From: a virus
IMG/VR virus record: IMGVR_UViG_3300030328_002692
Span: 1 to 64,000 of that record
Reading direction: 5' to 3' (one strand)
Length of the DNA: 64,000 nt
Part shown: positions 1-25,583 of the stretch, piece by piece
How positions within the stretch are numbered: the first letter of the stretch is position 1
Layout: the number at the start of each line of letters is the position of its first letter
The notes under the pieces: generated by a model
Databases searched by the model: none
What the model was told of the DNA's origin: nothing
What the model saw: the letters and a program-made list of their open reading frames with translations, nothing else
Made by a program: the position numbers and the translations under genes

Positions 1-214
1 TTTTGCGCCGAGTAGTAAAAGTAGTAAAAGTATTAGTGTCCCCTGCGCCAGTGAGAAAACTGAAGTGAGAAAACTCAAAAGTCCGTGTGATCCTTTGGCG
101 CCGAAGGCGCCAGTGTGAAAGTCTAGTAATTACACGAGAAGGTGTCTGTGAGGCTCTCAGAGGCTCTCTAAGCAACGATATGTCTGAGGCAAGGGAGGGG
201 TACGCCCCGCAGGG

Positions 215-277
215 CCGACTTATCCACAGGTTATCCACAGGCAAACCCGACTTATCCACAGGTTATCCACAGGCAAA
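215..277 (+). repeat. Direct repeat (32-bp period) carrying four perfect DnaA boxes
   Basis: TTATCCACA at 220, 231, 252, 263; unit ccgacTTATCCACAggTTATCCACAggcaaa occurs twice. Confidence 0.9.
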
Positions 278-362
278 ATAAATTGAAAAAAACGCTTGAC
301 TTTTTGCTCAATTTCTGATAGGAAATTGACCCGAAACATTTGATAAATGTTTAGCTAAACAT

Positions 363-392
363 TTGCATTATGTTTGGTTTTCGGGTTATAAT
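363..392 (+). promoter_or_regulatory. sigma70-type promoter
   Basis: TTGCAT-18-TATAAT upstream of the 399/423 start codons. Confidence 0.6.
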
Positions 393-422
393 ACTCTCAT
401 GATAAACAAAAAGGAGAAAAAC

Positions 423-827
423 ATGAATTTTAAAAACACATTTATTTTATATGTTGGTGTTGGTATGCACAGACTAGACCCTATAGATACGCTCACCGTA
501 GGCACTACAAGGCTTGATTTAATCAACTGTAGGTCTAATCAAAAGACTATGCAAATCGTCCACGTGTTCACGCTCTCACGCTCTGACGTGACCAAAGGAC
601 AATTTGAATATTGGGAAAGCCACACACTTTCACCAAAGCTAGATAAGATGTTGGAAAAAACAAGAGTTATTTATGACACCTTGTCTATGAATGGAAAATG
701 TCAAGGTAGAACTAATAACTGGTGGCTACTTAACGATACTAAACTAGAGGAGGTAATATTGTATGTCAAAAAAGAATTTGAAGCCTATGACAAAGGCACA
801 ACTGATACAGAGGATAAAGAGGACTAA
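423..827 (+). CDS. Hypothetical protein, possibly GIY-YIG/T5orf172-like fold
   Basis: AAGGAG SD before ATG 423 (in-frame ATG also at 399); N-terminal LYVGVG strand; weak resemblance only. Confidence 0.55.
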   Translation: MNFKNTFILYVGVGMHRLDPIDTLTVGTTRLDLINCRSNQKTMQIVHVFTLSRSDVTKGQFEYWESHTLSPKLDKMLEKTRVIYDTLSMNGKCQGRTNNWWLLNDTKLEEVILYVKKEFEAYDKGTTDTEDKED

Positions 828-835
828 AAATCCTC

Positions 836-923
836 ACCTCAAAATGAGGTTGCTCAAACTCCTACATTCAATGTAGGAGGTAGGGCTGGCTCGATCGAGC
901 CAGCTCGCTGAGTGCGCTCAGCG
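836..923. repeat. Cluster of four adjacent inverted repeats/palindromes
   Basis: acctca/tgaggt 836-850; ctcctacatt-c-aatgtaggag 859-879; perfect 20-bp palindrome gctggctcgatcgagccagc 885-904; cgctgag-tgcg-ctcagcg 906-923. Confidence 0.85.
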
Positions 924-1067
924 CCAGTGGTAAAGTGAAGTAGTAGATCGATAGTGCGCGCAGCGCCAGTGCAAAAACGAGTGCAAAAATGAAAGGTCTA
1001 CGAGTGCGAAAGCGACATATGTTCCCCTTTTAGCGGGGTCTTGTCCTTCCCTCCCCTCCACCCCATT

Positions 1068-1096
1068 ATTATAACATACTTCTTCCCGCTTGTCAA
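1068..1096 (-). promoter_or_regulatory. Leftward consensus sigma70 promoter with no obvious ORF
   Basis: TTGACA-17-TATAAT on the minus strand. Confidence 0.8.
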
Positions 1097-1123
1097 GGGT
1101 TTTTTTGAGAAAATTTAAAAAAG

Positions 1124-1143
1124 TTATCCACAGGTTATCCACA
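1124..1143 (+). promoter_or_regulatory. Tandem pair of DnaA boxes
   Basis: TTATCCACAggTTATCCACA. Confidence 0.85.
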
Positions 1144-1175
1144 GGAAATTAACAGAAAATACACAGGATATTCAG

Positions 1176-1204
1176 TTGACAAATCCTATTTGGCTCTATA
1201 TAAT
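1176..1204 (+). promoter_or_regulatory. Consensus sigma70 promoter
   Basis: TTGACA-17-TATAAT. Confidence 0.85.
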
Positions 1205-1211
1205 ACTCATT

Positions 1212-1361
1212 ATGGAAAACAAAAAAGAAACTGCAAAAAGACCAAGCAAAAAAGTTTTAATGGCACAAATAGAAGCTAAAGGCGTAGACAAAACAATTGT
1301 CGCTTCTTTAAGCAGAGCTAACATTGAAACAATGGTTTGGGTCAAAAGTCTACTTGACTAA
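1212..1361 (+). CDS. 49-aa protein resembling the C-terminal domain of A2-like proteins
   Basis: ATG 7 nt after the -10 box; PSKKVLMAQIE...SLSRAN parallels TKAQLVENLA...GLEKAP and RKAELVSVVE...TLVKAS. Confidence 0.65.
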   Translation: MENKKETAKRPSKKVLMAQIEAKGVDKTIVASLSRANIETMVWVKSLLD

Positions 1362-1512
1362 TTTCGCTGAACGCTACTAACTCGTTTACTACTCAAGGTT
1401 AGGAACACATGTGGGACAGATGTCTAAACTGTCCAAGCGAAAGCGACAAAGCCGACAAATGTTGTGTAGCATGGTGAGGGAAAAGCCTGAAGCAACAAAT
1501 GTCGGTTTTTTT
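1362..1512 (+). ncRNA. Candidate structured RNA/3' UTR ending in an intrinsic terminator
   Basis: Stems tttcgct/agcgaaa, ggacag/ctgtcc, gccgaca/tgtcggt followed by a T run. Confidence 0.4.
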
Positions 1513-1538
1513 ATGCGACAAAAGTCGCGTTGGCGCCC

Positions 1539-1567
1539 ATTATATCATAGCGGGGATGTTTTGTCAA
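1539..1567 (-). promoter_or_regulatory. Leftward consensus sigma70 promoter with no obvious ORF
   Basis: TTGACA-17-TATAAT on the minus strand. Confidence 0.8.
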
Positions 1568-1852
1568 GGAAAATTTTGTTTTTTTAACGCGACCCTACTT
1601 TTCATTGGTCTTTTACTCTTTTTAGACGCCTTTTAGACTTAAAAACCCCGCCCAAACTCCTTTTAAGACACTTTTTGATGGTTTTACAGGGCTTTTTTGC
1701 TTTAAAATCGCTGTTTTTGGCTCATAGGGGCTGCGCCGGCCTGCGCCAGTGCGAAAATGAAGTAGTTTTTCTATGGCTACGCGTGCGCCGACGCGCGCTA
1801 GAGTAGAAAAATGAGGCTTCCGCCGGCGCGGGGATATAATAATGTTATTGAT

Positions 1853-1881
1853 AGTATAACATATTAACCCCCGCCTGTCAA
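1853..1881 (-). promoter_or_regulatory. Leftward sigma70 promoter with no obvious ORF
   Basis: TTGACA-17-TATACT on the minus strand. Confidence 0.75.
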
Positions 1882-2033
1882 GAGAAAACTTATGCGGGGT
1901 TAGGCGCAGATTTACGGCGATTTGCGACTAATTTTCCTCTTTTTGCGAGATTTTCCACGAAGATGGACGATTTCGCGACCGGCCCCCCGGAATTCGCTAG
2001 CGTTATTTTATTATGCTAAGCGTAAGATTCTTC

Positions 2034-2062
2034 TTGACGCCACAGAATACGCCCTATATAAT
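2034..2062 (+). promoter_or_regulatory. sigma70 promoter
   Basis: TTGACG-17-TATAAT. Confidence 0.75.
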
Positions 2063-2068
2063 ATAGAT

Positions 2069-2248
2069 ATGAAATTGAGAAATATACAGCAAAAGATAGA
2101 AGCGACATGCTACAAGTGGAAATACACCACTAAAAGTGGCAAGTGGTGGAATAGAAGAACTAGCGAAGAAAGATTAGTTATCTGGCTAGTAAGTCTTCAA
2201 GCGATATGTATTTCTTCGCTTCTAGTGTTGGACAAGTGCTTCAATTAA
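2069..2248 (+). CDS. Small basic protein with hydrophobic C-terminus (59 aa)
   Basis: ATG 6 nt after the -10 box, in frame with track ORF 1922..2248. Confidence 0.6.
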   Translation: MKLRNIQQKIEATCYKWKYTTKSGKWWNRRTSEERLVIWLVSLQAICISSLLVLDKCFN

Positions 2249-2271
2249 CAGAAAAAACTTCGGCCAACCTA

Positions 2272-2301
2272 TTGACAGGCGTAAGAAAACTATAGTATAA
2301 T
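2272..2301 (+). promoter_or_regulatory. sigma70 promoter
   Basis: TTGACA-18-TATAAT. Confidence 0.75.
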
Positions 2302-2343
2302 ATACTCATAATGAAAATAATAAACTACATCAAGGAAAAGATT

Positions 2344-2670
2344 ATGGCAAATACAAATGCAAAAGCTAGACCTAAAAACTATACAGATGAGATGGTCGCT
2401 CAGATGACAGAGGCTTACACAGCTAATCCAACAAGAGAAACTGTGGACACTCTAGCCAAAGAACTTGGCAAATCTGTAAGAAGCATTATTGCTAAACTTT
2501 CAAGAGAAGGCGTTTATGTAGCTCAGCCTAAAGTAACCAAAACAGGCGAGCCCGTAGTAAGAAAAGCAGAACTAGTATCAGTAGTTGAAGCTCACTTCGG
2601 TATAGCATTACCAACTCTTGTAAAAGCTAGCAAAGCTGACTTACAAAGATTAGTTGATAACATCAGCTAA
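2344..2670 (+). CDS. A2: T5 A2-like DNA-binding protein
   Basis: NYTDEMV...LAKELGKSVRSIIAKLSREGVY HTH motif of the T5 A2 family; AAGGA SD before ATG 2344. Confidence 0.8.
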   Translation: MANTNAKARPKNYTDEMVAQMTEAYTANPTRETVDTLAKELGKSVRSIIAKLSREGVYVAQPKVTKTGEPVVRKAELVSVVEAHFGIALPTLVKASKADLQRLVDNIS

Positions 2671-2784
2671 GAACTCCCAAAGGCAGAGGGCGGATTGAAA
2701 ATAAACGCCCTCATAAGCCCGAACTGTTTTCGGAGTGCTTAAAGAAATACGCAGTAAATATCTTAAGCAATCCAAAAAAAGTTC

Positions 2785-2813
2785 TTGACTTGGCAGTTAA
2801 AATTTTGTATAAT
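2785..2813 (+). promoter_or_regulatory. sigma70 promoter of the large ncRNA
   Basis: TTGACT-17-TATAAT with upstream A tract. Confidence 0.85.
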
Positions 2814-2819
2814 ATATAT

Positions 2820-3712
2820 AGAAATTGAGAGAACAAGGGAAGCCTCAAAAACGCAAGTAGAAATATGAGCATTAGCCATCATCTCTACAGCAAGAGGCTC
2901 CCAACTCCGAGCTCTAACCACATTAAGAGCTGTAGCAACAAAACCATGTGGCGCAGACTGATAGCGATAACAATAGTAGTAATTGAGCCGTAGATTATGA
3001 CTAGACAATCTCGGGAGTGGAACGCTCTTTTATAAGGCAGTAATCCTACAACGCGTGGAGATAGTATCAATAAGCAGTTGGTAGTAGTAAGCCCAAGTAA
3101 GAAAACTATCCCCACATCACTTGGCGATGGGATATAAAAAAGTGGCAGTCCTATACGGCATAGCCCACCTAAGAAGGAGCCCCAAGCGTCTTGCAACACG
3201 AAAGCAACGAGCACTCTGATAGATATTGGCGACCACCTGTGTAAACAGTAAGGATAGCAAGGTTGGGCAAGAAGAACGCTCCCAACATCAGCGACAATAA
3301 TCCGAAAGGAGAGCAAAGCGAAGTTGAAGAGAGTAGCCACAATCGTTTGAGGTTAGCTGTAAAGAAATCCGAGATACAGGCAAAGAGAGTAGACTTATAC
3401 GCAGGACTAACCCAAAGGGATTAACACGCCTCTGTAACCAAATTGCCTGTGTGGTAGACTTGGTAGACAAGCGATAACAAAGTAGCTAGACAGATTGAGA
3501 GTGCTATAGTTATGAACTTACGGGGAAGACCTAAACCAATGTGCGAAATAGCTTAAGTAAGCATTGGCAAGGGCAAAGTAGTCATAAGTCCTTTACTCAC
3601 GCAGGCAGACACAGTAGTAGGGTATGAGTTATCCCACGCTGAAGGAATAAAACTTGGAGTAGCAAATTGCGAAACATACTTTTTCAACCCAGCCAAGTCG
3701 CTGGGTTTTTTT
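2820..3712 (+). ncRNA. Large ornate ncRNA (~890 nt), ROOL-like candidate
   Basis: No plus-strand ORF of 60 aa or more; own promoter and terminator; multiple 7-10 bp long-range helices and pseudoknots; family resemblance recalled, not searched. Confidence 0.75.
3686..3712 (+). terminator. Intrinsic terminator
   Basis: aacccagc-caagtc-gctgggtt followed by a T run. Confidence 0.85.
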
Positions 3713-3733
3713 ATGCCCAGCTGAAAATAAATC

Positions 3734-3762
3734 TTGACATATTAATAAAGGCGTGATATAAT
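3734..3762 (+). promoter_or_regulatory. Consensus sigma70 promoter
   Basis: TTGACA-17-TATAAT. Confidence 0.85.
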
Positions 3763-3808
3763 ATACATATTAAAAAATAAAATAGAAAATTTTAGAAGGA
3801 GAAGCGAT

Positions 3809-4024
3809 ATGAACTTAACATTTTTAAGCAAAACAGACAAAGACCTTCATGCTATGCGTTTACAACAAGACAGCGATGGCAAAGAGGCAAGACGCGAAAT
3901 CCAAAGAAGAAAATTAGTAGGATATTGCGATGGCACAAACATCACTTGGGTAGACCCTAAAGCCGAAGTTGAGACACAGTCACGAGTTGGCACAGTTATC
4001 ACTTACACTAAAGGGAGTAGATAA
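3809..4024 (+). CDS. Hypothetical protein
   Basis: AGGAG SD; first gene of a coupled operon. Confidence 0.75.
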   Translation: MNLTFLSKTDKDLHAMRLQQDSDGKEARREIQRRKLVGYCDGTNITWVDPKAEVETQSRVGTVITYTKGSR

Positions 4025-6965: not shown

Positions 6966-7199
6966 TTATAATTTACCCCGTTTGGAGAAGAAGCCTCGCT
7001 GAGGTTTTAACATTTGTTCCTTTTGTCTGCGTAATTCTCTCCTGCGAGCAGCGTTTTTTAGGCGTTGTTTCTTCTGTGCAGGTTTTTCATAAAATTCTTT
7101 CTCTCGGAGTGCTTCTAGTTTGCCACTTCTTTTAACTTTATTCCTAAATTGCCTTAACATTCTGTCAAAGTTGGGTTGTTGTGGTCTGCCTCTCCTCAT
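6966..7199 (-). CDS. rpsU: Ribosomal protein bS21 homolog
   Basis: FDRMLRQFRNKVKRSGKLEALREKEFYEKP...AARRR signature. Confidence 0.9.
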   Translation of the reverse strand: MRRGRPQQPNFDRMLRQFRNKVKRSGKLEALREKEFYEKPAQKKQRLKNAARRRELRRQKEQMLKPQRGFFSKRGKL

Positions 7200-7456
7200 C
7201 TATGTTTGCTTTTGCGTGGAATAATTTTCGTTCTGTCTTTATGTATGCTAGTGATAGCGTGAGGTGGTGTTGTCTTGCGAACTTTGATATCTCGCTTGGT
7301 GTCAAATGTCCAACCACGCTTTCTTAAGTAATGAACTTTAGAATGTATCGCTGAAACCGATTTGTTAAAGTGTTTGGCACACTCAGCGGCTGAATGCTTG
7401 CCATACAGTTTCTTTAGTTCGCGAACTTGCTCGTCTGTCCATTTATTATTTTTCAT
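7196..7456 (-). CDS. Small HTH (GcrA/Myb-like) DNA-binding protein
   Basis: WTDEQVRELKKLY...AKHFNKSVSAIHSKV. Confidence 0.75.
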   Translation of the reverse strand: MKNNKWTDEQVRELKKLYGKHSAAECAKHFNKSVSAIHSKVHYLRKRGWTFDTKRDIKVRKTTPPHAITSIHKDRTKIIPRKSKHR

Positions 7457-23037: not shown

Positions 23038-23250
23038 ATGAAAAAATGGTATCACATATTATGGGGAAGTAAAGAGGAGGACGAGCTTGTACAAAAGCAA
23101 GTAGAGAAGTCGCCTGACCCCGCAGATTTAACAATAGAAAATGCTTACAAAACTAGATGGATTTGGTATCATACCATCTTGGCAGGACTTATGTTCTTTG
23201 CCAATATAATTCTGTTTGGCATTTTCATCTTATTAGCAGTAAAATTATGA
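23038..23250 (+). CDS. Small C-terminally anchored membrane protein
   Basis: AAGGA SD; hydrophobic C-terminus; ATGA overlap with pol. Confidence 0.7.
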   Translation: MKKWYHILWGSKEEDELVQKQVEKSPDPADLTIENAYKTRWIWYHTILAGLMFFANIILFGIFILLAVKL

Positions 23251-25517
23251 AAGTAGCAATAATTGAATCAAAGATGTCCAGAACTGATTGGGCAGACCGC
23301 TTTGATGGTGCGTTTGAGTTTGACAGGTATGCCCTGTGTTCAGACGCTAGAAAGAAAAAGATTTTAAAAGCAGACGTAGATATAGAGATTAACCTTGATG
23401 ATTACACTTGGGTAGTACTTGTTGGCTCAGAAGCCTTGAAGTATTACACAAGTGTAAATTCTATCACAGAATATAGTGGTAGATGTGTAGATGACAAGTT
23501 TCTTCCTGTAATCAATCCTGCTATGCTTTCGTTTAAACCTGAGGCAAAACCTTTATGGGACGAGAGCAAAAAGAACATACAAGAATTTATTAGTGGAGAC
23601 TTGGTAGTAGCGCAAGTAACAGAAGAACAAGCTTTGGGTATAGATACTGAAGAAGAAGCAAGAGAGTTCTTGCAGGAAGCATTAGACCACCCAAACAAGT
23701 TTATAGCACTCGACTCGGAGACAACAGGACTCTATCCAAGAGATGGATATATGATTGGATTTAGTCTATCTTATAAGAAGGATATGGGAGCTTATATACT
23801 AACTGATGTTATCACGCCAGACATTGAAGAAATAATGCAAAAGATATTTGACACAAAGATAGTAGTGTTTCATAATGCTAAGTTTGACTTGGCTTTCTTT
23901 GAGTATCATTTCAACTTCAAGTTTCCACGCTTTGAAGATACTATGCTTCTTCACTATTGCTTGGAAGAACAGCCAGGTACACACGGGCTAAAACAACTTG
24001 CAATGAAGTACACAGCTTATGGTGATTATGAGAAACCAATGCACGATTGGATTGATGGATATAGAAAGTCACATGGAGTACTTAAAGCAGACTTTCAATG
24101 GGATAGTATTCCATTTAGTGTTATGAAAACATATGCTGCAATGGACGCAGTAGTAACTCTATTGGTATTTGAAAAATTATATCCAGCAGTTAAAAAGAAT
24201 CCTAAGCTATGGTCAGTATATGAAAATATACTTATACCTGGCTGTCGTTTTCTAACAGATTTGCAAGACAATGGAGTGCCTTTTGATAAAGACAGATTAG
24301 AAAAGGGTAGAGATTTAATGCAGGCAGATATTGATGCAGCAGTAAACGAACTATACGAATTTGACTCAGTAGAGAAATTCGAACAAACAATGCAAAAACA
24401 ATTTAATCCAAACAGTACAGTACAGCTAAGACAATTACTGTTTGATTTTGCAGGTTTAAAACCAACAGGCAAAAAGACTGGTACAGGCGCACATTCAACA
24501 GATGCGGAAGTACTAAAACAATTAGCAGAAGAACACGAAATACCAAAGCATATTCTTAGCATAAGACAAAAGTCAAAGATTAAGAATACATATTTGGATA
24601 AGATATTACCACAACTTGATAGAGATGAGAGGTTGCGTACAGGCTTTAATCTGCACGGCACAACATCAGGTCGTTTATCTTCTAGTGGTAAAATGAATAT
24701 GCAACAAATACCTAGAGATAATCCTATTGTAAAGGGCTGTATAAAAGCTAAAGAAGGTAATAAGATTGTTGCAATGGACTTAACAACTGCAGAAGTGTAT
24801 GTTGCTGCTGTACTTGCTGATGATAAAAATCTTATGAATATATTTAGAGAGGGTGGTAACTTCCACTCTAATATTGCAAAATTAGTATTCTCACTCCCAT
24901 GTGAAGCTGATGAAGTTGCAGAATTATATCCAACACAAAGACAGGCAGCTAAGGCTGTCACCTTCGGCATAATGTATGGTGCTGGGGCCGCTAAAATATC
25001 TCAGCAAGTTACAGCAGACTCAGGAAAATACTTTAGTAAACAAGATGCGCAAGAAGTAATTGATGATTACTTTAGACAGTTCCACAAACTAAAAGCATGG
25101 ATTGATAAGAGTAGTAAATTTATTATGGATAATGGATTTATTTATGGCGCTACAGGAAGAAAGAGAAGACTGCCGAATGTTAAGTCTGATAATCAAGGAA
25201 TACAAGGTCATGAAGTTAGGTCTGGATTGAATTTCTTAGTTCAATCAGTAGCTTCTGATATTAACTTACTTGGTGGAATAGATATGCAAGAATACATAAA
25301 AAGGACTGGAATGAAGTCCAAAATATTCGCTCTAGTACATGACTCAATTCTAGCAGAAGTGCCAGAAGATGAGATAGAACATTATTCAGAAAAATTACAA
25401 AGTTTTATTCAGCAAGATAGAGGATTCAGTATACCAGGTGTGCCAGTAGGGTGTGACTTTGATGTACATGATGATTATTCTCTAGGCAAGTTTGAGAAAA
25501 TGTATGAGGGGCTGTAG
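23247..25517 (+). CDS. polA: DNA polymerase family A with 3'-5' exonuclease
   Basis: DSETTG, HNAKFD, TSGRLSS, RQAAKAVTFGIMYG, VHDS; start MKVAII at 23247. Confidence 0.95.
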   Translation: MKVAIIESKMSRTDWADRFDGAFEFDRYALCSDARKKKILKADVDIEINLDDYTWVVLVGSEALKYYTSVNSITEYSGRCVDDKFLPVINPAMLSFKPEAKPLWDESKKNIQEFISGDLVVAQVTEEQALGIDTEEEAREFLQEALDHPNKFIALDSETTGLYPRDGYMIGFSLSYKKDMGAYILTDVITPDIEEIMQKIFDTKIVVFHNAKFDLAFFEYHFNFKFPRFEDTMLLHYCLEEQPGTHGLKQLAMKYTAYGDYEKPMHDWIDGYRKSHGVLKADFQWDSIPFSVMKTYAAMDAVVTLLVFEKLYPAVKKNPKLWSVYENILIPGCRFLTDLQDNGVPFDKDRLEKGRDLMQADIDAAVNELYEFDSVEKFEQTMQKQFNPNSTVQLRQLLFDFAGLKPTGKKTGTGAHSTDAEVLKQLAEEHEIPKHILSIRQKSKIKNTYLDKILPQLDRDERLRTGFNLHGTTSGRLSSSGKMNMQQIPRDNPIVKGCIKAKEGNKIVAMDLTTAEVYVAAVLADDKNLMNIFREGGNFHSNIAKLVFSLPCEADEVAELYPTQRQAAKAVTFGIMYGAGAAKISQQVTADSGKYFSKQDAQEVIDDYFRQFHKLKAWIDKSSKFIMDNGFIYGATGRKRRLPNVKSDNQGIQGHEVRSGLNFLVQSVASDINLLGGIDMQEYIKRTGMKSKIFALVHDSILAEVPEDEIEHYSEKLQSFIQQDRGFSIPGVPVGCDFDVHDDYSLGKFEKMYEGL

Positions 25518-25583
25518 CTCAGTTGGGAGAGCGACTGCCTTGCACGCAGTAGGTCGCAGGTTCGACTCCTGTCAGCTCCACCA
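25508..25583 (+). tRNA. tRNA-Ala(UGC) with encoded CCA
   Basis: 76-nt cloverleaf: GGGGCTG/CAGCTCC acceptor with G3:U70, anticodon TGC, GGTTCGACTCC T arm, ACCA end. Confidence 0.97.

Follow-up and report, generated by a model that had tools for sequence, protein, structure and literature searches.

To our knowledge, very few classes of non-coding RNA above 500 nt have been described from bacteria and phages, among them OLE, GOLLD, ROOL, HEARO and the self-splicing introns. Each of the known large classes has opened structural or mechanistic ground, most recently in the form of RNA-only nanocages. ROOL and GOLLD are both borne by phages, contain pseudoknots and combine a conserved core with variable segments (PMC12286853). 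ROOL assembles as an octameric nanocage that consists of RNA only (PMC12286853). GOLLD, which exceeds 800 nt and in some instances comes from marine metagenomes, has one well-conserved and one variable part (PMC12286853). In addition, Fremin and Bhatt (2023, PMC10690425) screened the intergenic regions of IMG/VR and obtained 8,495 unnamed structured RNA candidates, on average 67 nt long. How does a further RNA, about 890 nt long, compare with these systems? It is encoded on the plus strand at 2820–3714 of the window, by which we mean bases 1–64000 of the linear, 91,133-bp IMG/VR virus record IMGVR_UViG_3300030328_002692, which is 93% complete. This stretch very probably specifies a large structured non-coding RNA, the founding example of a family carried by marine T5-like phages.

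The family spans hundreds of uncultured marine T5-like phages. It is uncatalogued, being absent from Rfam 15, and literature searches found no description of it; it constitutes a new class among the large ornate phage RNAs. Around a family-wide core, the RNA forms numerous local helices and two or more pseudoknots of the H type, and variable arms have been inserted, deleted or swapped between lineages. We refer to the RNA of the window as W and to related loci by L-numbers (e.g. L111).

The transcription unit and its relatives

The initial annotation had proposed that a dedicated promoter at 2785–2813 and a terminator enclose the non-coding stretch, and promoter and terminator scans bear out both. 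The sigma-70 promoter (2785–2813, plus strand) reads TTGACT-17-TATAAT, matches the consensus at 11 of 12 positions and places the start near 2820. A consensus promoter occupies the equivalent place in nearly all related loci. The intrinsic terminator (3686–3714, plus strand), with its stem at 3686–3707 followed by a U-tract, is the sole strong plus-strand terminator in the area; its stem covaries across subfamilies (CCCAGC/GCUGGG, CCCCGC/GCGGGG, CCCUGC/GCAGGG and others). The GC content of the unit is 0.43–0.47, against about 0.35–0.38 in the flanks, and its plus strand is A-rich and T-poor. The RNA would thus extend over ~890 nt from its predicted start to the U-tract of the terminator (2820–3714, plus strand), an assignment that draws on full-length homologues, the absence of codon periodicity, tetraloops and covariation. 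A promoter, a terminator, non-coding sequence, compensatory pairs and strand-specific motifs are together what is expected of a structured-RNA gene in general, and the unit has all of them.

How widespread is this arrangement? The synteny anchor is the upstream gene (2311–2670, plus strand). It encodes a 119-aa A2/D5-like DNA-binding protein of the helix-turn-helix (HTH) type, with matches to phrog_1725 (DNA binding protein) and phrog_323 (D5-like regulator), and its variability by codon position (0.091/0.045/0.200) has the pattern of a coding sequence. IMG/VR contains 145 relatives of this protein and metagenome contigs contribute at least 430 more; nearly all are marine, Tara included. We examined 161 loci with the A2-like gene, 81 from viral and 80 from metagenome sources. 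At 118 of the 161, what comes after the A2-like gene is, in order, a consensus sigma-70 promoter, a unit poor in open reading frames (ORFs), a terminator and the next consensus promoter; most of the loci that do not show the full layout are truncated contigs. The units of these 118 loci are 599–1649 nt long, with a median of 997. Like W, the related units are A-rich and devoid of long plus-strand frames, and their GC content is 0.39–0.46. With nhmmer, homology to W over its full length was detected in L111, L106, L108, L112–L116, L158, L143, L006, L007, L002 and L003.

The phage itself appears to be T5-like, as the initial annotation had it. Its DNA polymerase (23157–25514) is 44–45% identical, over 96% of its length, to those of Demerecviridae, the matches being the phages Aeromonas AhSzq-1, Proteus PM135 and Enterobacter KKP_3711; no cultured phage is closer. 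This identity, together with the A2/D5-like neighbour gene, supports the assignment to the T5-like lineage: a T5-type replication gene and an A2-type pre-early gene, the pair by which we recognise a T5-like early region, are both present. Neither blastn of 2700–3800 nor tblastn of the A2-like protein found a match among 50,697 GenBank phage records, and the phage thus has no cultured close relative.

A family-wide core

What do the divergent units share? Model-based searches and covariation point to a core at 2979–3027 (plus strand), made up of the invariant GURAUUGA (2979–2986) and two hairpins, P1 and P2. Hairpin P1 (2988–2996/3007–3014, plus strand) has a 3-bp outer stem, a bulge or mismatch and a 4–5-bp inner stem, and carries the conserved loop UAYGAC.A.ACA. 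Hairpin P2 (3015–3018/3024–3027, plus strand) carries the loop GGAAY on a stem of 3–4 bp in W and 6 bp in other subfamilies. The three elements are common to most subfamilies, in which they lie ~150–450 nt from the 5′ end. A covariance model of GURAUUGA and P1, R1, matches once per locus and on the plus strand only, in 57 of the 81 viral and 56 of the 80 metagenome sources. There is one R1 match in the whole 91-kb genome, and none in T5, Aeromonas AhSzq-1 or Proteus PM135. In the model-based alignment, five of the seven pairs of P1 show changes on both sides; one pair is CG in 16 sequences and GC in 16. The covariation of P1 is 0.270, compared with 0.093 in shuffles, none of 500 being as high, and it is at most 0.08 when the partners are slid.

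A scan of IMG/VR for the exact pattern of the core gave 24 stretches, among which only L089 and L099 were new members; most of the new matches were set aside as chance occurrences inside coding genes of unrelated phages. An antisense role for GURAUUGA was considered and rejected: its complement is present once in the 64 kb, and the search for targets was negative.

In the clade of W, the 3′ strand of the terminator (3698–3705) is the complement of a further invariant sequence, (C/U)CAGCGA(C/U) at 3289–3296. We considered an antiterminator pairing of this CCAGCGA sequence and rejected it, as it is confined to the W clade and not retained where subfamilies have other terminators.

Secondary structure and covariation

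To describe the remainder of the fold we used alignment A4, in which 12 full-length relatives were aligned by MAFFT, and defined 25 helices. In the resulting curated structure of 108 pairs, 36 pairs show two-sided change compared with 17.9 in shuffles. The covariation score is 0.166; shuffles give 0.087, none of the 500 reaching the observed value, and slid controls give 0.04–0.08. MAFFT misaligns some variable hairpins, which lowers the paired percentages.

The 5′ part begins with helix H1 (2837–2846/2894–2902, plus strand), which occurs as GGGAGCC/GGCUCCC, AGGAAA/UUUCCU, GGACA/UGUCC and GGGAAU/AUUCCC. There follows an H-type pseudoknot (2910–2951, plus strand), in which the loop (2918–2923) of the hairpin 2910–2915/2926–2931 pairs with 2946–2951. 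The variants of this loop helix include CCACAU/AUGUGG, CCAUGA/UCAUGG, GCAGAAG/CUUCUGC and CUACGAA/UUCGUAG. Three pairs of its first, four-pair block change on both sides; so do both pairs of the remaining two-pair block, but there only 54% of the cells are paired.

Beyond the core, the helix 3028–3033/3097–3102, with an inner GGC/GCC (3028–3102, plus strand), encloses a variable and often deleted arm at 3040–3080. Here 98.6% of the cells are paired and two pairs covary, the inner pair being AU in four sequences, GC in three and CG in three. The alignment places further hairpins at 3107–3112/3129–3134 and at 3142–3145/3165–3168, the latter with 3151–3154/3160–3163 inside it (3107–3168, plus strand). 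A hairpin at 3483–3506 (plus strand), UAGC/GCUA with a conserved CUAGACA loop, becomes UGGC/GCCA or CGAC/GUCG elsewhere, and three of its four pairs change on both sides.

Two of the local helices named in the initial annotation are likewise kept by compensatory change. GUUGGG/CCCAAC (3262–3286, plus strand) covaries to GCUGAG/CUCAGC and GAUUGG/CCAAUC, its MAFFT register being partly off in the A4 count, and CCAAUG/CAUUGG (3536–3567, plus strand) to GCACUA/UAGUGU and AAGU/ACUU. A third, UAUCCC/GGGAUA (helix 10, within 3107–3168), changes to UAUCAG/CUGAUA in L158 and L143, but by eye only and in a genafpair alignment; the formal A4 count gives no two-sided change. The proposed TCC-GAAA-GGA hairpin lies within a lineage-specific inserted module (3299–3410, plus strand) that the alignments place in W, L111 and L118 only.

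The 3′ part is occupied by a second pseudoknot domain (3581–3641, plus strand), which is restricted to some subfamilies. Its hairpin is formed by 3581–3583/3608–3610 together with 3590–3592/3603–3605, and the loop of this hairpin (3595–3599, ACUCA) pairs with 3625–3629 (UGAGU) to form helix S1 (plus strand). The UGAGU strand lies inside helix S2 (3612–3614/3639–3641 together with 3620–3622/3633–3635, plus strand), which therefore encloses the 3′ strand of S1. Across 13 diverse sequences S1 is 100% paired, with three of its five pairs covarying, and the covariation of the domain as a whole is 0.274, compared with 0.109 in shuffles (0 of 500 as high). The stem 3581–3583/3608–3610 changes from GUC/GAC to GUG/CAC in five sequences and has longer variants in other subfamilies. 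RNAalifold independently recovers S1 and the terminator.

What, then, of helices between distant parts of the unit? The initial annotation listed five long-range complements, some of them crossing, and took the crossing ones to imply pseudoknots. All five are present letter for letter, but at a frequency expected by chance and without covariation; four of them clash with deletions in homologues or with local helices that covary. Perfect inverted repeats of 6–9 nt occur in the unit as often as in shuffles (for k = 8, 5 against 4.9 expected; for k = 9, 1 against 1.1), and the covariation of the five helices on A4 is 0.043, compared with 0.050 in shuffles, 454 of 500 being at least as high. In the first (2995–3003/3579–3587), position 3583 varies between C and G with no compensation in the loop of P1; it covaries with 3608, the G of GAC/CAC (CG:7, GC:5). 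In the second (atctcgg/ccgagat), the 5′ strand coincides with the 3′ strand of P1, and the 3′ strand sits in the insertion peculiar to W, L111 and L118. In the third (gcgtggagata/tatcccacgc), the 5′ strand is deleted in 7 of the 12 relatives and the 3′ strand belongs to S2. The fourth (agcactct/agagtgct) is refuted by the covarying local hairpin at 3483–3506, in which its 3′ strand, varying without compensation for the claimed partner, takes part. The fifth (acaggcaa/ttgcctgt) is contained wholly within the insertion. The pseudoknots themselves survive, two of them covarying, but they arise from other, local pairings and not from the crossing helices. We conclude that the layout and the covariation agree with a discrete, promoter-to-terminator, large structured RNA with pseudoknots, the transcript being predicted.

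One RNA or several?

Many other loci are homologous to W only in the 5′/core part or only in the 3′ part, and the family is therefore modular. The 3′ domain alone is common to L021, L027, L043 and L050–L052, and the core alone is found in other subfamilies. Inside the insertion at 3299–3410, a segment of 38 nt (3338–3375) is 92% identical to one from a distant subfamily (L008 7456–7493, L009 2892–2929, L035 2655–2691), which suggests that modules of the RNA have been exchanged between lineages. A AGUAGUAGGG-loop-CCCACGCU module, which in W is helix S2 (3613–3640), recurs within the loop of the terminator hairpin of another subfamily (L017, L026, L036, L038, L040 and L041); it is a recurrent structural module.

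Does this modularity mean that the unit is a string of smaller, co-transcribed and perhaps processed RNAs, namely a 5′ pseudoknot, a core and a 3′ pseudoknot domain? This is the main architectural rival of a single large RNA. It would account for modular conservation, for subfamilies that have the 3′ domain only or the core only, for the 38-nt module common to distant subfamilies and for the insertion and deletion of large arms. It would also account for the want of a covarying long-range helix: covariation of all columns against all, on a noisy and gappy MAFFT alignment of 27 sequences and 1566 columns, identified with confidence only S1 and the terminator. On the other hand, each unit has, at all loci, one promoter and one terminator with no internal signals, and the order of 5′ leader, core and 3′ domain is fixed. 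A variable periphery around a core is also typical of GOLLD and ROOL (PMC12286853), and long-range pairs may have been missed through poor MAFFT alignment. We consider the string of smaller RNAs unlikely and continue to read the unit as a single large RNA.

Plus strand and minus strand compared

Is it the RNA or the DNA that matters? In 92 distinct units we counted tetraloop hairpins on stems of 3 bp. The plus strand has 117 of the GNRA and 63 of the UNCG type, the minus strand 42 and 8. CUUCGG occurs 86 times, as against 15 for its complement CCGAAG and about 9 in dinucleotide shuffles. The counts of G–U and A–C in helices (20 and 15) do not decide the strand; it is the tetraloop asymmetry that decides for the plus strand.

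This asymmetry bears on a reading in which the transcript is a by-product and the role lies in the DNA or in the act of transcription, be it polymerase loading or DNA pulling, an injection-stop-like signal or an origin. In favour of such a role are the very strong promoters and the proximity of the unit to the left genome end, which in T5 carries the first-step-transfer signals. The helices are nevertheless maintained by compensatory changes, and UUCG and GNRA tetraloops are in excess only when the plus strand is read; neither would be expected of a DNA element or of a functionless transcript. The injection-stop signal of T5, moreover, has no promoter–terminator frame. A role at the level of the DNA is accordingly very unlikely.

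Known RNA families

Does the RNA belong to a class already described? At the gathering score, Rfam 15 finds one tRNA only in the whole 64-kb window; at E ≤ 10 with permissive filters it finds no ROOL, GOLLD, OLE, HEARO, raiA or IMES in 2600–3900; and in 17 homologous loci of different subfamilies it finds tRNAs only. The RNA unit contains no tRNA or tmRNA-like element, and the sole tRNA of the window (25508–25580) is 22 kb from it. At some related loci, tRNA genes lie 3–4 kb downstream. The initial annotation had offered ROOL or a new class. With no covariance-model match in the window, in 2600–3900 or in the 17 loci, the ROOL label fails its one testable defining feature, and the motifs that had been likened to ROOL fall in lineage-specific or variable segments; it is the new class that the evidence favours.

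A divergent or enlarged member of ROOL or GOLLD would be an RNA of similar kind, with pseudoknots, a conserved core and linker-like variable segments (PMC12286853), and the downstream tRNA genes of some related loci would suit it. Set against the lack of any Rfam match, the location of the supposedly ROOL-like motifs and the 22 kb that separate W from the nearest tRNA of the window, these likenesses leave such membership extremely unlikely.

Coding potential

Could the unit encode a protein after all? No plus-strand gene had been seen in it, and the longest plus-strand frame in 2820–3712, at 59 aa, is indeed within the range of shuffles (65 ± 16). An ORF of 42 aa (2865–2993, plus strand) is deleted or frame-shifted in L106, L107, L108, L111 and L113. 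A minus-strand frame of 151/155 aa (2885–3352) is longer than in 98.8% of dinucleotide shuffles (p ~0.012), but scarcity of T on the plus strand is in itself enough to lengthen antisense frames. This frame is not kept, the longest minus-strand frames of close relatives being 62–115 aa. With its 155-aa product, tblastn matched only patches conserved as DNA, in differing frames; Pfam gave no match to it, and the promoter scan no minus-strand promoter of note. In the 12-sequence alignment, variability by codon phase is flat within the unit, at 0.183/0.184/0.188 in the frame of the minus-strand ORF and 0.169/0.180/0.168 in the plus frames, in contrast to the periodic values of the adjacent A2-like gene at the same loci. 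The conserved minus-strand coding signal that the initial annotation had named as fatal to an RNA was thus looked for and not found. A protein, whether from the minus-strand frame or from small plus-strand ORFs, has the length of that frame in its favour and the broken frames, the aperiodic substitutions and the negative searches against it, and is as good as untenable; by these measures, the unit is not translated.

Points against a single functional RNA

Several observations weigh against reading the unit as one large functional RNA. Only promoter and terminator signals predict the transcript, where it begins and ends and how abundant it is. The curated structure was partly drawn by eye from the alignment on which its pairs were then counted, a procedure that makes the paired percentage too high. 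This circularity is lessened, but not removed, by the shuffle and slide controls, by RNAalifold and by the model-based alignment. The minimum free energy of the single sequence, −224.8 kcal/mol, is unexceptional (z = −1.29). No covarying long-range helix ties the domains together, and ‘one globular RNA’ is not proven.

The sequence motifs, too, give little help. AGUAG and AGUAGUA are enriched 3- to 7-fold in comparison with shuffles and often stand just 5′ of helices. But the plus strand of the window has AGTAG 191 times compared with 96 for CTACT, and AGTAGTA 42 times compared with 8, a genome-wide bias; the pentamer being frequent on that strand throughout, we do not read it as a binding site. 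GGA motifs of the CsrA type are not enriched in the units (1230 against 1229), nor are runs of four consecutive A-purine-any (ARN) triplets, the motif of the distal face of Hfq (168 against 161). These two counts argue against a sponge for CsrA or for the distal face of Hfq, a candidate that we rejected. As for function in general, it is guesswork: a trans-acting role in host takeover or counter-defence, set out below, is a guess that we advance with modest confidence.

Neighbouring genes

The next unit (3734–4024, plus strand) opens with a perfect consensus promoter at 3734–3762, located by the promoter scan, and contains a 71-aa gene at 3809–4024. Homologues of the 71-aa protein are encoded directly 3′ of the RNA at 73 of 113 loci. 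It has no match in Pfam or PHROG. Its AlphaFold2 model has a mean pLDDT of 73.6, with the N-terminal 40 residues helical and the remainder of low confidence; a recognisable RNA-binding fold is not evident in this model, on which no fold search was run. The downstream 128-aa protein, used as a query for related loci, gave no relatives.

Very basic mini-proteins are encoded just 3′ of the RNA at 24–36 loci each (e.g. L007, L008, L002). They are of 47 aa (DUF7230 match, E = 1e-11), 44 aa and 61 aa, and are possible nucleic-acid binders.

In many related phages an extra unit of 75–270 nt, flanked by two consensus promoters, lies between the A2-like gene and the large RNA; examples are L008 6539–6676, L013 679–928, L022 858–1162 and L062 4622–4745. 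These extra units may be small RNAs or mini-genes.

A phage gene for ribosomal protein bS21 (PF01165, E = 8e-11) is found 3.3 kb downstream of the large RNA, at 6966–7196 on the minus strand. The gene before it encodes a GcrA-like HTH protein (7196–7453, minus strand), a weak match that falls below the cut-off (E = 1.5e-4). OLE RNA has been proposed to bind bS21 (PMC12286853), and by analogy a link between the phage bS21 and the large RNA is conceivable.

The left 2.3 kb of the window (1–2300) contains few convincing genes. The promoter scan found several perfect or near-perfect sigma-70 promoters there, on both strands: at 1176, 2034 and 2272 on the plus strand and at 1096, 1567 and 1881 on the minus strand.

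Genomic position and possible function

When might the RNA be made? The unit is at the left, and probably first-injected, end of the genome of a T5-like phage. In T5 the A2 gene lies within the first-step-transfer region and is followed by the protein genes T5.005 and A1; no comparable non-coding unit is annotated in that region. What the present locus shares with the T5 pre-early region is an A2-type DNA-binding gene, very strong sigma-70 promoters and the left genome end. Given its position and its promoters, expression of the RNA may, by analogy with T5, be called ‘pre-early’.

If so, host RNA polymerase would make the RNA abundantly, immediately upon entry of the left genome end. The RNA would then act in trans, as a folded particle, in host takeover or counter-defence. 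Its likeliest mode of action would be to bind or sequester a macromolecule of host or phage, possibly as a homo-oligomer in the manner of ROOL and GOLLD (PMC12286853). What suggests such a role is the strong promoter, the presumed first-entering end, the fixed synteny with the A2-like gene and a conserved core with exchangeable arms.

More tentatively still, we may picture a hitherto unrecognised class of RNAs of 0.6–1.6 kb that abounds in the ocean virome, each the first product of the first-injected end, working as an RNA-only or RNA–protein machine that disarms a host function before the remainder of the genome enters. Candidates for the function so disarmed are a defence system, a nuclease or the translation apparatus. 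This picture is possible, although we would not bet on it. Should the early-takeover role be true, phages would here be using a large structured RNA as a weapon, which is rare, and the RNA would also be a marker for a widespread uncultured lineage of marine T5-like phages.

Comparison with known systems

The family adds to the large RNAs a class of ~1 kb. Its hundreds of public marine variants are enough for covariation-guided three-dimensional modelling, and its defined transcription unit makes for easy production in vitro.

The candidates of Fremin and Bhatt come from the same source, IMG/VR, and likewise rest on covariation, and single hairpins of the present RNA may be among the 8,495; but no promoter-to-terminator RNA of ~1 kb was described there (PMC10690425).

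ROOL (RF03087) resembles the present RNA in being a large ornate RNA of phages or prophages with several pseudoknots, a conserved core and no known protein partner. However, ROOL is described mainly from prophages of Firmicutes-type hosts, and the present RNA from marine T5-like phages. ROOL often lies beside a tRNA island, whereas the present RNA follows an A2-like gene and has its own sigma-70 promoter and terminator. ROOL is of ~0.6 kb, compared with a median of ~1 kb for the present family.

GOLLD (RF01998) comes close in its size range, its carriage by phages, its marine members and its division into conserved and variable parts. There is no covariance-model similarity between the two. 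In GOLLD it is the 3′ region that is universally conserved; here the internal core is the most widespread element and the 3′ domain is limited to subfamilies. Expression of GOLLD rises late, at lysis, whereas the present RNA is predicted to be made first. Its genomic position points to the first minutes of a lytic infection, unlike the late or prophage context of GOLLD and ROOL.

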